Below are positions 43,826 through 49,753 of a stretch of DNA of 64,000 nt, piece after piece. How positions within the stretch are numbered: position 1 is the first letter of the stretch; every line of letters starts with the position of its first letter. The notes beneath the pieces are model-generated. The model was given only the letters and a program-made list of their open reading frames with translations, had not been told where the DNA came from and searched no databases. Source of the stretch: a virus; IMG/VR virus record IMGVR_UViG_3300030116_003118, positions 1 to 64,000 of that record, one strand, 5' to 3'. The translations under genes and the position numbers were made by a program.

Positions 43826-44886
43826 TTACTAAACCTTCCTAAAGATGATGCCGCCCGCCAAATAAAGAAAACAATGTACGTTACTATTAATACACCTATT
43901 GTTGCTATTGTTGACATGTATGTTCGCCCGGACTAATTTGTTAAACACTTAAAATCGAAAATTTGGCCCGTAATTTATTTGCCACTTGCGTTTTTTTTCT
44001 ACCTGTTTTAATTACATTCCCAGAATAAAAATGTTTTTATCATTCTTTTAGTGGTAAAAGAGACCATTAGTTTTGTATTCTTTACTTCGCGACCCCGTTT
44101 TTACAGTACATTAATTACAGGCTTTACTTTTGGTCGCTCTGTATATAGATATCACAGGTGCGGGTACTATTTAGATATACTACTAGCAGGTATTAAGATT
44201 TTAAGCCTGCTGCGACTAAATAAAACAAATAAAAATCAAAGAAAAAAAATCGTTCCAAAGCATATGGTCATGCAAATATATTTGACCCGTAAGGAATATC
44301 ATTCAATCACGAATGTAATCTTCTACGCACAATTGCTGATTGCAGCAATTGTAGGTACTATGTACCTGTAGAATTATACCGCGATTTACTTCCCTTCCAT
44401 ATGGTCATGTAAATACATGCACCCGTCAGGAAATTCTTCCAACAACGATTGTCGTATTCAGTGTTCAGTGGAGCATAGTAGTGATAACACTTACTATTAC
44501 CCTATTTCTCTGAATACGTCATCTTATGTTTTCATCCTTCCATATGGTTCGGAGGTGAAACACGGCGGATTAACACGCATTATGAGTTATACTTCACTCA
44601 TCATCGTCATAGAAAATATCCACGTTTTCACCTCCATACGAACCCGGCGGGTTGCACAACTTGTGACAACCATATGGTAATGCCTGTGCTTTGCAAACAG
44701 AATGCCCGATAAACGGGACTTACTTCATTGTTACGATTTTACAGCAATTACCCATCTTTACTCTAAAATCGCCTAATTCCATTCCGCAGGTTTCACATAT
44801 TTTAATCATTATTTTTACATCCATTAAACCAGCACCAATAGAACGAGGATTCACAATCATTACAGGAGGGAAGGGTATTTCTCATA

Positions 44887-45615
44887 CTAATCCTCCAATA
44901 CCTGTTTAGTAGTCTCAGGCGTACATTCGTAATTAGCCTCGCTTTTTATACTTGTCTCACAATCAACCTCTATCATTACAACATCATCTGAATACTTCTG
45001 TAATATATCTGTAACTGTTTTGCGCATCTTCTTCATTGTGGATAGTGGTGTTTCTACTAGCATAAACTCAATGTTCTTTCTATCGGTCACTGATTCGGCT
45101 TCGTAAGTGATTACCATTTTTAGAGTAAAAGAACCACCGTATCCTTGTTCAAATTTGGTCTTCATTGTAGTGCCATCTTCAAACAATACTTTGCCCATAG
45201 CACCAGCAGATATTTGTTCTGCTCCTTCTGGTAATTCAAAGACTTCTTCATCCACTACTAGATATTCGCCTCTTACTCTCTTCCAATCATGGCTGCTTGT
45301 TTTGGTATAATTGGTAGCAATAGTGGCTTCAATACCATATTCATCTAATCCTTCTATTGCTCTATCAGCCTGTGAACTGTAAGCAAGAGTCATCATAATT
45401 TGATTGTTATCATCAACAATGCTGTATGTAGTTTCTTCATCTATTATTTCTTGAAAACCATAGTTCTCTGCGCTCGGAGTTCCATAAGCGTAACTAGCAG
45501 TTAGTGCCAAACCCTTATCAAATAGGTCTGATTGCACCTTTCTGTTCAATTTCTTGTGGTCTCTAAAACTATCACTCTTGAATTTGATTGCCATCTTTCT
45601 TTCATATATTGTCAT
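44887..45615 (-). CDS. Hypothetical protein (cassette 44669-45858)
   Basis: 242 aa ORF. Confidence 0.6.
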   Translation of the reverse strand: MTIYERKMAIKFKSDSFRDHKKLNRKVQSDLFDKGLALTASYAYGTPSAENYGFQEIIDEETTYSIVDDNNQIMMTLAYSSQADRAIEGLDEYGIEATIATNYTKTSSHDWKRVRGEYLVVDEEVFELPEGAEQISAGAMGKVLFEDGTTMKTKFEQGYGGSFTLKMVITYEAESVTDRKNIEFMLVETPLSTMKKMRKTVTDILQKYSDDVVMIEVDCETSIKSEANYECTPETTKQVLED

Positions 45616-45804
45616 TTACTCATCTCCTATTTGTTCAACATAATCATTCAATGCTGACTTCATATCTTTCATTACATCTTCTAGGTTATCACCAGATACC
45701 TTTAGTTTGCTAATACACAATACTAGGGCAGACCCAGATTTCATGTGCTTAACCTCTAACACGTATTTTGGCTCGTTAATTATTGTTGCGTCATTTGTTT
45801 CCAT
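45616..45804 (-). CDS. Hypothetical protein, probably leaderless
   Basis: ATG at 45804 (METNDATII...) lies ~25 nt downstream of TATATA (45828-45833). Confidence 0.55.
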   Translation of the reverse strand: METNDATIINEPKYVLEVKHMKSGSALVLCISKLKVSGDNLEDVMKDMKSALNDYVEQIGDE

Positions 45805-45891
45805 ACATCTTATTAGTTTTATCAGAATATATAGGGTGAGTGTTAGCAAAGCACACTACCATATGGTTTGCTTTGCGTTAAACCCGGATGG

Positions 45892-45919
45892 AGAATAGGG
45901 GGTAATTACCCCCCTATTC
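45892..45919 (-). terminator. Perfect 28-bp palindrome overlapping a stop codon
   Basis: AGAATAGGGGGTAA|TTACCCCCTATTCT. Confidence 0.6.
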
Positions 45920-46459
45920 TTCTTCCCCTCCGTCAATGAAGGATACAACAGGGTATCCCTCAGAATCGTAAGAGCCATCCCAATGATACTTCTTGGAAGT
46001 GTCATTGTTTGCGTGGGCGTTAAATGCACCATTCAGGAATGTGCGCTCCTTCTTGGTCATTTCCTTTGCGTATGCCTCTGCACCATCGGCCATATCTCTG
46101 TAAAGAAGGCCACCGGACTTTCCGTGCGTTCTTAGGGTTGCGTAAATTGCGGGGTAAACCACATCTCTGCAAGCCACGAAATACACTTCATTGAGGTATA
46201 GGTCGAATTGAGACTTGGTTGCGATATCCATCAAGGATTTGCGGCCTTGTCCAATTGGAGAGTTAGCGACATCGGTGAATACACCGACTATGCTGTTCCA
46301 ATATCTCTTTCGGGTGCTTGGGTTAGCGTCACCGAGAGTGAACATTGAACGAACCATTGCGGCCAAATCCGATTGTTCGGGGTTAGCCGCAAACCACTCT
46401 TCCAAGTCTGCTTTCTTTGCGTTCCATCTGTTATCATCTATGCTGTTATCTGTTGCCAT
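45914..46459 (-). CDS. Cassette protein, paralog A
   Basis: 181 aa; shares TxGD.N.STR...NSI, LRxHGKSxG and WDGS motifs with 48506-49015. Confidence 0.75.
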   Translation of the reverse strand: MATDNSIDDNRWNAKKADLEEWFAANPEQSDLAAMVRSMFTLGDANPSTRKRYWNSIVGVFTDVANSPIGQGRKSLMDIATKSQFDLYLNEVYFVACRDVVYPAIYATLRTHGKSGGLLYRDMADGAEAYAKEMTKKERTFLNGAFNAHANNDTSKKYHWDGSYDSEGYPVVSFIDGGEEE

Positions 46460-46569
46460 AAATCATCATCTCCGTTGATTAGTAGGGTAGTACCCCCTAT
46501 TATCTCCGTTCTATTAAATGCTACAGAACATATATGGTTTTTATTTCACAAAGTATAACACCATATGGT

Positions 46570-46865
46570 TATGAAGTAGGCTACAAAAGAGTTCAGGCTA
46601 CAGCCACTCGCACTCTATAGTGCGAATCTAAATGTGGTGAGATGTGCCTGAAATCTATTGTAGTCGCTCAATACCCCAAATCGGGTTTTGTCCGACTCAA
46701 ACAATAATAGACGGTAAATCAAGTTTTAGACTTAACCAATGCTGCTTTCGCTTAGGCTAGATACATTGTGTATCTTAGCAGCCTTAGAGCCTTCTTATTG
46801 ATGTAGTTAATTTTAACAACATCAATAATTAAAACATGATAAACCATCTATTAACTCATCGGACA
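46570..46865. ncRNA. Candidate structured RNA unit (~300 nt)
   Basis: No ORF; nested helices CTACAA/TTGTAG, TTCAGGC/GCCTGAA, TCGCACT/AGTGCGA, TTGTCCGA/TCGGACAA. Confidence 0.5.
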
Positions 46866-47950: not shown

Positions 47951-47960
47951 ACCATATGGT

Positions 47961-48216
47961 AAGGATAAACGTATGCTGGTGGTATAGGCTCTCTAAAGAG
48001 CCAATCTAAATGTTAAATACTTCCAGCATACGGAGATACACCAGATTTCTGGTCGGGTATTATGGAAAGTTTCGCTTAACTAGGGTGATAAACGGCGCAG
48101 GAAGGGTAAAGTTCTACGAAGCGTAAAACGTGTTGACTTGTATCTTGGATACATTTACTCTTTACCACTCCTGCGACCAGTTTCTCACTCCTATTTAAGA
48201 CTCAACTATTTCCTAA
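47961..48216. ncRNA. Candidate structured RNA unit (~255 nt)
   Basis: CGTATGCTGG/CCAGCATACG, CGCAGGA/TCCTGCG, GGTAAAG/CTTTACC. Confidence 0.5.
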
Positions 48217-48226
48217 ACCATATGGT

Positions 48227-48400
48227 ACGATTAATTGAACAGATAGATGCCTTAATCGCTTCTGTTAAAAGTAGGCAACTGGGAAATCGAAACTGCCTAC
48301 CTCCGTTTCGACTGGAAGTGTAAAAATTACACCTTCGCTCCGAAAAAAACGGCTTGTTTTTCCTTCTCGGCTTTCCAGACCCCTGAAAAACGCTATCATT
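48227..48400. ncRNA. Candidate tandem-pseudoknot RNA unit
   Basis: Three consecutive H-type pseudoknot patterns (see findings). Confidence 0.5.
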
Positions 48401-48505
48401 ACCATATGGTTCGGCTTTGTATAGAACCATATATATACTCGATGACCTTGCCAAGAATGCCCCCGAACAGAGGCAACGAATGATAAAAACAATAGGTGAT
48501 AAAAG

Positions 48506-49015
48506 ATGGAAGATATTGAGTGGGATTCAGTAAAGATAAAAGTAAACACTATGCTTGAAGGAAACGCAGAAGTAGGTGACATACCTTCTGATGTCGTTAC
48601 CCTAGCACAGATGTTAATAACGACAGGAGATAATAACTCCTCAACAAGAGATAGCCTGACTAACAGCATTAAGGACATGCTAAAGCCATACGCAGGATAT
48701 CCGTGGAAGAGAGGCAATCAGGGCATTCTACCAGCCGCAGCCCGCGCTGTAGTAGATTCTGCAACTGATAACATCAGAGAAGCAGCAAGAACGTTCTTTA
48801 ACGAGACTTCGCAGTATTCTCAGCCACTTCTGCGAAAGCACGGTAAGAGCAAGGGTTCCCCTGTTTACGCCGATGCTGACGAGTATGCAAACGAACTTGC
48901 ATCAAAGGCTCGTAAGGCAGCAACACAACTCTTCAAGGATGGAGAGTGGGATGGTTCGCTATCCGGCCTTGCTGCTTGTGCGGCTTATGATGACGTAACT
49001 ACGGAGGATGAGTGA
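48506..49015 (+). CDS. Cassette protein, paralog B
   Basis: 169 aa; AGGTGAT SD, TATA at ~48430-48437; a hairpin overlaps the stop codon. Confidence 0.75.
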   Translation: MEDIEWDSVKIKVNTMLEGNAEVGDIPSDVVTLAQMLITTGDNNSSTRDSLTNSIKDMLKPYAGYPWKRGNQGILPAAARAVVDSATDNIREAARTFFNETSQYSQPLLRKHGKSKGSPVYADADEYANELASKARKAATQLFKDGEWDGSLSGLAACAAYDDVTTEDE

Positions 49016-49753
49016 TTATCCTCCGTAGCCTATAGTTCGGGTGCATTTTCTCGGAGAGTGGGAATAGGGTCTTTAATGGCCTTATTCCCCTCTCCCTCTT
49101 TTCAGGTTCTTATTTCCGAGCAAAGCAGAAATAGAACCATATGGTATTAGGTTCATTATGAGAGGTGGGGCGCGAGGTGTGCCGCACCATTTATATGTTC
49201 TCAAGAATCCTATGGAATGCTAATCAGTATTGTCAGTATTTGAGACAGGAAAGTGCATAGTTTTCTAATGACAGTATATGAAAGAATCTAAATTAATGGC
49301 GTAAAATATTCTAGCCGTTAAAACAGATAGAAACTCTGGGTGGAGAATGTGGTTCTATATGATATATTATATCCATTATCAATACCCATATCTATATGAC
49401 ATATCCTATATGATATGATAAGGAGGATTCCCTCTGAGTAAAAGAAGTCACGATATGTCATGTTTCTACTCTTTCTAGTTAGCGATAATAACGAAGTTGG
49501 GATGATGTGTTAGGAAATGAATAAGAAGTTAGTATATTGTATATTATTATATTTTTATTATTATTATACTATTATATTACCCACCACCACCACCACCACT
49601 CGGTATGGGGGGGTGTAAAAATGAGAAAAATAGAAAGATATCAGAAGGATGCACAAGATGCTCACTTTACGGGAATATGTGGGCATATTATCTTTATTTC
49701 TCAGGTAGAAATTCGTGAGAATAAACCGAGGACACTTTTAACAGGTGAATAAA

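Follow-up and report, generated by a model that had tools for sequence, protein, structure and literature searches.

A Palindrome-Delimited Array of Expression Cassettes and Folded Units in the Genome of a Putative Magrovirus-like Archaeal Virus

In T4-type phages, the promoter–stem-loop cassettes known as PeSLs are thought to drive modular shuffling of the genome (PMC2839356; PMC4122927). In this study, a 4.9-kb stretch of the virus record IMGVR_UViG_3300030116_003118 was analyzed in which about a dozen units are joined end to end at copies of a 10-bp palindrome, ACCATATGGT. The window used for the analysis consists of bases 1-64000 of this 84,494-base record, and the array spans positions 44259-49145. 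In PeSLs, a short repeated regulatory motif, consisting of a promoter and a terminator hairpin, lies between small accessory genes in a hyperplastic region, and the cassettes are self-contained for expression; the array resembles them in each of these respects. It differs from the PeSLs in having an archaeal host and a TATA-type promoter instead of the sigma-70 -35/-10 early promoter, and in a junction that is a perfect 10-bp palindrome, invariant over viruses in which the protein of the last unit (P0002) is as little as 54% identical. All copies are, moreover, gathered in one 5-kb array, units are also inverted, and most units are gene-less folded elements, one of them a manA-type RNA. With moderate confidence, we interpret the stretch as a PeSL-like hyperplastic accessory region in which the junction element is a palindrome bound by a protein. 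By this analogy, the system would work like the PeSLs without being a member of that group.

Integrons are built around the tyrosine recombinase IntI and its attI and attC sites, and their promoterless cassettes are read in one orientation from one common promoter. The array is similar to an integron in its tandem exchangeable cassettes, in its hairpins of conserved structure and variable sequence, and in a content that differs between close relatives. It differs in that no tyrosine recombinase was detected (PF00589 in 0 of 3 genomes), the cassettes have their own promoters and lie in both orientations, and the junction is a fixed 10-bp palindrome instead of the variable attC. Shufflons and other multiple-inversion systems (Rci; Min, Gin, Cin and Hin) use a tyrosine or serine recombinase on segments that lie between short inverted sites. 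As in those systems, segments flanked by short inverted sites can invert singly or in groups, giving many permutations. However, neither type of recombinase was found (PF00589 and PF00239, three genomes), genomes that are 97-98% identical are collinear and give no sign of fast switching, and the units do not serve as interchangeable 3′ ends for a single gene. The proportions of a CRISPR, with repeats of about 23-50 bp and uniform spacers, are also not those of the array, in which the junction repeat is 10 bp and the units measure 130-1189 bp; cas genes were not part of the profile search. A text search of three magrovirus papers gave nothing on promoters, regulators, non-coding genes, palindromes, intergenic regions or hypervariable regions, and a literature search on palindrome cassette shuffling in archaeal viruses gave nothing relevant among the matches listed. 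When the 10-mer was sought in the texts of papers, it occurred in 52 of them, and the matches listed were all unrelated and apparently primer or construct sequence.

Magroviruses are described as very abundant ocean viruses with uncultured hosts, and their description reports a major capsid protein (MCP) similar to those of haloviruses alone, two gene blocks, ligases, a RadA-like ATPase and, in group B, a tRNA-Leu (PMC5434244). The virus analyzed here was found in marine metagenomes and codes for a portal, an SU10-type MCP, a tail tube protein, an ATP-dependent DNA ligase and a ribonucleotide reductase. Its MCP is closest to those of haloarchaeal tailed viruses (23% identity), and a tRNA-Leu at 50866-50952 is the sole Rfam match at gathering level in the window. 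Because the MCP relationship, the ATP-dependent ligase, the tRNA-Leu and the marine runs fit the magrovirus description, we infer that the virus is a magrovirus-like archaeal tailed virus.

The palindrome array and its conservation

Ten perfect copies of ACCATATGGT are present in the window (starting at 44669, 45858, 46560, 46866, 47166, 47646, 47951, 48217, 48401 and 49136) where 0.05 are expected, and none of 100 dinucleotide shuffles reached ten. Copies with one mismatch extend the series leftward, at 44259 (AGCATATGGT) and at 44396 and 44539 (both TCCATATGGT). Outside the array there are three one-mismatch copies (9738, 51142 and 53152), which is near the chance level of 1.9. A preliminary description made from the sequence had reported these ten perfect and three one-mismatch copies at 44259-49145, which the count and the shuffles confirm. 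It had also noticed no further perfect copy, and this holds for the window and for the whole 84,494-base record. The start-to-start spacings that it listed (137, 143, 130, 1189, 702, 306, 300, 480, 305, 266, 184 and 735) are exact. The junctions, to which no strand is assigned, are as follows.

44259-44268: degenerate junction palindrome AGCATATGGT, left array edge (one-mismatch search)
44396-44405: degenerate junction palindrome TCCATATGGT, the T of which stays with unit F1 in 4 genomes
44539-44548: degenerate junction palindrome TCCATATGGT (one-mismatch search)
44669-44678: junction palindrome ACCATATGGT (exact match)
45858-45867: junction palindrome with CAAAG/CTTTG boxes on either side, where two class I units abut
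46560-46569: junction palindrome
46866-46875: junction palindrome
47166-47175: junction palindrome
47646-47655: junction palindrome
47951-47960: junction palindrome
48217-48226: junction palindrome
48401-48410: junction palindrome upstream of the P0002 promoter, present in 14 of 14 loci that hold a P0002 homologue
49136-49145: junction palindrome, right array edge

The units between these junctions fall into two classes. Class I units contain protein genes or a manA-like RNA and have CTTTG boxes that face inward at both ends. Class II units are small and folded, contain no open reading frame (ORF), and are without CTTTG and TATA-like boxes. The units of the window are listed below from left to right.

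44259-44678, no strand: three small class II units (137, 143 and 130 bp), ORF-less and without CTTTG boxes; the middle one (44396-44548) belongs to family F1 and is 88-93% conserved in the related loci L033 and L035
44669-45867, minus strand: class I cassette with genes for proteins of 62 aa (45616-45804) and 242 aa (44887-45615); inward CTTTG boxes at 44689-44693 and 45847-45851, TATA-like box at 45826-45836
45858-46569, minus strand: class I cassette with gene P0001 (45914-46459, 181 aa), a paralogue of P0002; boxes at 45871-45875 and 46549-46553, TATA-like box at 46527-46537, hairpin at 45886-45926 past the stop codon
46560-46875, plus strand: class II unit with a long hairpin capped by a mini-hairpin and AATCTAAATGT (46625-46635), then CGCTTAGGC and a hairpin
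46866-47175, no strand: ORF-less folded unit with a 38-nt inverted repeat (46897-46934 and 46976-47013)
47166-47655, minus strand: class I cassette without an ORF, containing a manA-like RNA gene (Rfam match 47357-47595); boxes at 47180-47184 and 47635-47639, TATA-like box at 47614-47624
47646-47960, plus strand: class II unit with a long hairpin (47669-47746), then CGCTTAGGC and a hairpin
47951-48226, plus strand: class II unit with a long hairpin capped by a mini-hairpin and AATCTAAATGT (48003-48013)
48217-48410, no strand: 184-bp ORF-less unit; in every relative compared, its last ~70 nt (48331-48400) are kept along with the P0002 cassette, to which they may belong in function
48401-49145, plus strand: class I cassette with gene P0002 (48506-49015, 169 aa), the last unit and in plus orientation in 12 of 12 arrays; boxes at 48415-48419 and 49121-49125, TATA-like box at 48427-48437

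ORFs of at least 100 aa are confined to the units at 44669-45867, 45858-46569 and 48401-49145; they include a 150-aa minus-strand ORF (48265-48717) that runs antisense over the P0002 unit, and the other units have no ORF above about 87 aa. The preliminary description had missed that one of the units it took as ORF-less is a distant manA RNA. The correspondence that it proposed between unit boundaries and functional boundaries is supported.

Relatives of the array were sought with several proteins. Locus searches with P0001 and with a 517-aa protein of the left flank gave no relatives. A search with the Pyr_excise-like protein encoded to the right of the array gave seven loci, of which L005 alone had the palindrome (13 perfect and 21 core copies at the same place), while L006-L011 were without an enriched palindrome. 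A pattern scan of IMG/VR added three more records. G001, G002 and G003 have 12-13 perfect copies each, all within about 5 kb. P0002 had 47 homologues in marine metagenomes, and a profile made from 29 of them led to 14 viral loci. The 10 loci with at least 7 kb of upstream DNA contain 11-23 copies of CCATATGG each, and the four truncated loci contain 1-4, which are those flanking the gene. Over these viruses the identity of P0002 to the window protein falls to 54% and the 10-mer is unchanged. These sequences show the array to be a trait that is conserved across this clade of viruses. As the symmetric 10-mer is perfect at every junction across such deep divergence, a sequence-specific dimeric protein appears to act on it. 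A dimeric DNA-binding protein, viral or host, would read the palindrome and keep it perfect.

The array DNA and P0002 had no match in a collection of named phage genomes. GTDB genomes were scanned for three spaced copies of CCATATGG, and none of the 79 stretches obtained, which were mostly regular tandem repeats, was an array of this kind; the scan therefore gave neither a host link nor a provirus. One stretch, L110 (Erysipelotrichaceae metagenome-assembled genome contig CATOPA010000088.1), has 29 copies of ACCATATGGT at a strict 66-bp period and is an unrelated regular repeat array with CRISPR-like spacing.

Class I units as expression cassettes and the manA-like RNA

To characterize the unit ends, the units of 13 arrays were pooled, giving 226 sites, 213 units and 426 unit ends. 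ACTTTG was located at a median position of 6 after the palindrome in 71 of the 426 ends, with GCTTTG in 29 more, and TATA-like words clustered near position 25. When CTTTG boxes were scored within about 14 nt of the palindrome, they were found at both ends of 24 of the 34 units with an ORF of at least 100 aa (one end in 7, neither in 3), and the ORF-less units of at least 400 bp (n = 18) were similar, with boxes at both ends in 14, at one end in 1 and at neither in 3. Among the 161 units smaller than 400 bp, the corresponding numbers were 3, 2 and 156. In outline, a class I unit consists of a palindrome, a gap of 3-9 nt, (A)CTTTG, a second gap of about 8-16 nt, the TATA-like box, the cargo, a hairpin, CAAAG and a further palindrome. 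In each class I unit of the window the TATA-like box is present at one end alone, and this is always the end where the cargo begins. Hairpins follow the stop codons of P0001 (45886-45926) and P0002 just before the next palindrome and promoter, in the manner of the stem-loop terminator that PeSLs combine with a promoter between genes. These results show that the class I units are autonomous expression cassettes. The preliminary description had missed the fixed distance of the palindrome upstream of the CTTTG and TATA-like boxes in the expressed units. P0001 and P0002 are themselves paralogues (27% identity, E 4e-12).

Contigs from two metatranscriptome runs of a single study cover several of these cassettes. 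Over P0001 they lie at 45956-46323 and 46060-46507, over P0002 at 48459-48846, 48517-48921 and 48899-49056, and over the ORF-less class I unit at 47353-47535, where the depth was highest (63). The 242-aa gene has weak cover (45230-45395). Two contig ends (46507 and 48459) and the start of the Rfam match (47595) are 24-27 nt downstream of the TATA-like boxes, measured from the box centres, with the contig ends at 25-27 nt. This agrees with an archaeal TATA-type promoter, in which the box is about 25 nt upstream of the RNA start, although contigs are weak evidence for exact starts. The RNA contigs favour the promoter reading and fall short of proof.

Activator sites in archaea are often located upstream of the TATA-like box. 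The palindrome in class I units is probably an upstream promoter element, and this role is the best supported because of the fixed geometry to the CTTTG and TATA-like boxes and because of the RNA contigs.

The class I unit without an ORF (47166-47655) matches the Rfam model manA (RF01745) on the minus strand at 47357-47595, over model positions 1-192 of 192, with 32.0 bits and an E value of 1.7e-5 in a permissive search. The match begins 24 nt downstream of the TATA-like box at 47614-47624. Matches to manA were also found inside 8 of the 9 related arrays scanned, on either strand and with E values down to 4e-11; the array of L039 gave none at E of 0.05 or below. In an alignment of nine sequences, 39-40 of the 52 predicted pairs have changed on both sides. 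Paired cells amount to 92.9%, compared with 65.5% in shuffles and 40-51% when partners were slid, and none of 500 shuffles reached the observed values. The likeness to manA thus consists of a match to the whole model, the conserved loops of the family and strong covariation. On the other side, all the array copies are below the Rfam gathering score of 55.2 bits (32.0 in the window and 39.2-54.3 in relatives). They also differ in their setting, since each is a lone promoter-bearing cassette in an archaeal virus, and known manA is located in the 5′ untranslated region of bacterial or cyanophage genes. Earlier work described manA in sequences of marine metagenomes and T4-like cyanophages and put it forward as a candidate for regulation in cis (PMC2864571), and a 2026 preprint reports that manA RNAs assemble into RNA-only cages (preprint 10.64898/2026.07.01.735769). 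In this archaeal virus, the manA-type RNA gene of the unit at 47166-47655 stands free and has a promoter of its own.

Exchange of units at the palindrome

All-against-all comparison of units revealed that unit families recur in changed order and orientation among related arrays, while the flanks stay collinear. With the units of G2 numbered 1 to 16, those of L037 read 1 9 10 3 4 x -5 -7 2 -8 11 12 14 x 16. With those of L043 numbered 1 to 24, L044 reads 8 10 -1 x 7 -2 11 -12 x 22 20 13 14 15 -21 24 x x 16 17 9 -4 23 x x. Four pairs of genomes were compared in terms of the identity of their shared units, the number of shared units, inverted units and breakpoints.

L033 and L034: identity 96.8%, 11 shared units, 0 inverted, 0 breakpoints
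G2 and L037: identity 90.4%, 13 shared units, 3 inverted, 7 breakpoints
L043 and L044: identity 87.9%, 19 shared units, 5 inverted, 17 breakpoints
L033 and L035: identity 85.7%, 8 shared units, 0 inverted, 3 breakpoints

Rearrangement scales with divergence. The window has 3 of its 12 units in common with L033-L035, and a contig from a strain of about 98% identity covers 43873-48858 collinearly. The array evolves fast compared with the rest of the genome, yet these comparisons give no sign of a rapid switch. An apparent inversion of unit F8 between L033 and L034 was an artefact of a self-complementary unit, and it was removed by scoring both orientations.

The ends of high-scoring segment pairs (HSPs) that lie inside both arrays were then located relative to the palindromes in 10 genome pairs. 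Of 158 such ends, 91 lay no more than 10 nt from a palindrome centre in each of the two genomes, and 62 lay no more than 5 nt away; by chance, a fraction of 0.04-0.09 would be expected for one genome, as these windows cover 4-9% of the array. In PeSLs, insertions, deletions and replacements between related viruses likewise end at the repeated motif. Half-site variants were also informative. At junctions with differing neighbours, not all of which are independent, a variant half-site was common to homologous units on their own side in 16 of 27 cases and on the far side in 5 of 44. The half-site variants travel with their own unit, and therefore exchange takes place between the two halves of the palindrome. 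The comparison with relatives that had been suggested as a check on modularity thus gave a positive result: whole units have appeared, disappeared, changed place or flipped, the breakpoints lie at the palindrome, and the flanks are collinear.

Because the same short symmetric sequence is present at every junction, and because a palindrome is its own inverted repeat, any unit could be moved or flipped intact. Recombination or template switching between palindrome copies would delete, move or flip a unit without breaking it. In this the array would work as PeSL cassettes, with their promoter and terminator, do in T4-type phages, except that units can invert as well.

The exchange point inside a perfectly symmetric 10-mer, the half-site variants that stay with their unit, and the inversion and transposition of single units would also be expected if the palindrome were the core site of a dedicated site-specific recombination, integron- or shufflon-like, carried out by a recombinase of an unrecognised family (P0001/P0002 or a host enzyme). 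The class I ends, with palindrome and CTTTG box in inverted arrangement, would then be terminal inverted repeats, and the class II units would be structure-specific sites or cargo. In keeping with this, the resemblance between the two arms of one class I unit slightly exceeds that between arms of different units (9.24 compared with 8.16, p 0.011), and P0002, which is transcribed according to the RNA contigs and belongs to no known family, lies at the array edge in 12 of 12 arrays. However, a six-frame profile search of three genomes that are 90-100% complete gave no match to Phage_integrase (PF00589), Resolvase (PF00239), IS110 DEDD, TnpB-type or RVT_1 models. All the recombinase, reverse transcriptase and Rad51 models gave hits in control genomes, with PF00589 in 14 of 14 controls. 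The search agrees with the earlier impression that no integrase is visible, and the recombinase or reverse transcriptase that had been envisaged elsewhere in the genome was not found in these three genomes. Near-identical genomes are collinear, so recombination is rare, and the fixed spacing to the CTTTG and TATA-like boxes points to a role in transcription. The contigs of two DNA runs contained no circle junction, such as the excised mini-circles of PeSL cassettes would leave, and no well-supported alternative junction at the palindrome. The only candidate, a low-depth joint, connects 47656, at a palindrome edge, to 47295, which is not a palindrome, and other joints lie inside genes; none of these was used as evidence. 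Of the integron/shufflon-like array first suggested for this locus, the shuffling of whole units at the palindrome stands; the lack of a recombinase, the collinearity of near-identical genomes and the cassettes with their own promoters do not fit it. Dedicated recombination is, in our judgement, an unlikely explanation.

Several observations weigh against a protein-bound palindrome within a PeSL-like region. Ten identical bases are very short for homologous recombination, which is also a point in favour of a dedicated recombinase. The Rad51 Pfam model had no match in the same three genomes; a RadA-like protein may be too divergent or may lie outside the part that was searched. In terms of the binding protein, P0001, P0002 and the 62-aa and 242-aa proteins had no match in Pfam, PHROG, PDB sequences or the Atlas, and the palindrome-binding protein was not identified. 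A pure promoter role leaves the promoter-distal CTTTG box unexplained, and it gives no reason for palindromes to enclose 156 of the 161 small units, in which no promoter is recognisable; both points would suit dedicated recombination. Resemblance to the palindrome was the criterion by which the pooled sites were chosen, which makes a logo of the 10-mer itself circular. The RNA evidence consists of contigs from a single study; contigs cannot establish where an RNA ends, and DNA can be present in RNA libraries. Finally, 67 of the 158 HSP ends are away from the palindrome, many of which represent fading homology or replacement within a unit.

Folded units, flanking regions and implications

In the clade of the window (the window and L033-L035), class II units of about 270-350 bp start with a hairpin of 25-45 bp, and at its tip a mini-hairpin is followed by AATCTAAATGT, which is unpaired. 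The stem of the mini-hairpin occurs in eight different versions, with the pairing kept. In each of 13 segments, which include near-duplicates, the strand that carries the AATCTAAATGT motif folds more stably than its complement (means of -47.5 compared with -41.6 kcal/mol), with 36 G-U pairs compared with 18. This asymmetry argues for a single-stranded molecule of defined polarity that is read inward from the nearer palindrome. In one folded unit (L033:3738-4066 and L034:3675-4000), both arms of an inner stem of about 18 nt have been wholly replaced with the pairing kept, while the other 20-nt windows are identical at 18-20 of 20 positions; the two genomes are 96.8% identical. The pattern suggests a hypervariable duplex of limited extent, in which diversifying selection may be acting on the sequence of the stem itself.

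In the other clades, the small units share the hairpin NNN-GC-RTTAR-GC-NNN′, with 51 distinct instances. Its flanking three positions are paired in 78-88%, compared with about 40% for permuted partners, and these hairpins had no strand bias (15 of 29). The members of another family, F3 (G2 (L031):6095-6240, L039:7612-7764, L043:6226-6414 and L044:5015-5187), are about 90% alike by eye over the 3′ ~75 nt, across clades in which P0002 is about 54-72% identical to that of the window, and their 5′ halves cannot be aligned. Either strong constraint or transfer of a cassette between clades could account for the conservation of F3.

T-run terminators were not enriched at the ends of class II units and no promoter was recognised there, which again does not favour the PeSL-like interpretation. 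The contigs of the two RNA runs fell on no class II unit, which says nothing about their expression. Matches of 13-mers between class II units and the rest of the genome were not in excess. Two hairpin arms were compared with IMG/VR viral contigs; one gave 0 hits and the other a single 21-nt match, in an unrelated contig of 61% GC and inside a large ORF, which was taken as chance. The class II units would be folded single-stranded elements, most likely small RNAs, the pairing of which is conserved by compensatory change. Two observations make RNA the more probable form: a known RNA family is present in the array, and the strands are asymmetric.

The folding of class II units, their lack of a recognisable promoter or terminator and their polarity inward from the palindrome are also what would be expected if the array were a long precursor from which small RNAs are released, with the palindrome as an RNA processing signal (ACCA|UA|UGGU or a 10-bp duplex of flanking palindromes). 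Two palindromes that flank a unit can indeed pair, and RNAalifold closes units in this way; the palindrome is invariant, so covariation cannot support this pairing. However, units lie in both orientations within one array, and one precursor cannot carry all of them in the sense direction. Each class I unit of the window is provided with a TATA-like box, and RNA contigs end (at 46507 and 48459) some 50 nt within the unit instead of at the palindrome. An RNA-processing array had been offered as the second possibility in the preliminary description and finds no support here; contigs, although poor for RNA ends, begin and end where the TATA-like box predicts and not at the palindrome. RNA processing also does not explain the DNA breakpoints at the palindrome between genomes, and we regard it as very improbable.

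The array is located at the point where leftward and rightward gene blocks diverge, with the genes to its left reading leftward and those to its right reading rightward, and the GC skew changes sign at 46-48 kb of the window. The right-hand side of the array adjoins an AT-rich stretch (49320-49600) in which TCTATATGAYATAT words are repeated at 49354-49372 and 49391-49409, and a piece of which (49519-49580) is 76-81% conserved in relatives; this stretch may be an origin or control region. The skew change, the conserved, very AT-rich neighbour and the many copies of one symmetric site would fit iterons or centromere-like sites at an origin, bound by a replication initiator or partition protein, with the units being incidental. 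However, the strand switch explains the skew change equally well. The GC content of the array (0.40-0.42) is above that of the genome (about 0.33-0.37), and the array contains no AT-rich unwinding element. The position of the sites relative to promoters is fixed, and their number (11-23) and spacing vary among relatives. One would also not expect a genome to be at its most plastic at the origin. It would be surprising if this explanation were correct.

The nearest candidate for a DNA-binding regulator, and possibly for the palindrome binder, is encoded by a conserved gene of the right flank.

49745-50356, plus strand: conserved right-flank gene, 203 aa (phrog_323, E 0.006; phrog_1485, E 1e-18)

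The N-terminal ~55 residues of this protein weakly resemble phage helix-turn-helix-type regulators (phrog_323), and its C-terminal half matches phrog_1485, the function of which is not known. For proteins P0050 and P0051, searches of Pfam/PHROG, a PDB sequence profile and the Atlas found no function. The tRNA-Leu, which has the anticodon TAA, overlaps the mechanical start of the Pyr_excise-like ORF (50911-51507), and therefore the real start of this gene is probably further downstream. Both are kept to the right of the array in relatives, and L037 has two tRNAs there.

In a bolder and doubtful interpretation, ACCATATGGT would be the crossover site of an undescribed recombination activity of marine archaeal viruses, with a recombinase of an unknown family, perhaps the P0001/P0002 proteins that are always present in the array. 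The array would then be an integron-like platform for the capture, flipping and permuting of cassettes, and its main cargo would consist of structured RNAs, namely manA-type RNA and at least two new families in which hypervariable stems preserve their pairing. Should such a recombinase exist, the array would amount to a new system of cassette exchange. The array provides a testable promoter architecture with a candidate operator, and it is a natural case of an archaeal virus shuffling its genome in modules, where the symmetric junction additionally allows inversion. It is also a rich set of uncatalogued folded elements with hypervariable stems. A free-standing manA-type gene outside bacteria and cyanophages would bear on the question of whether manA acts in cis.

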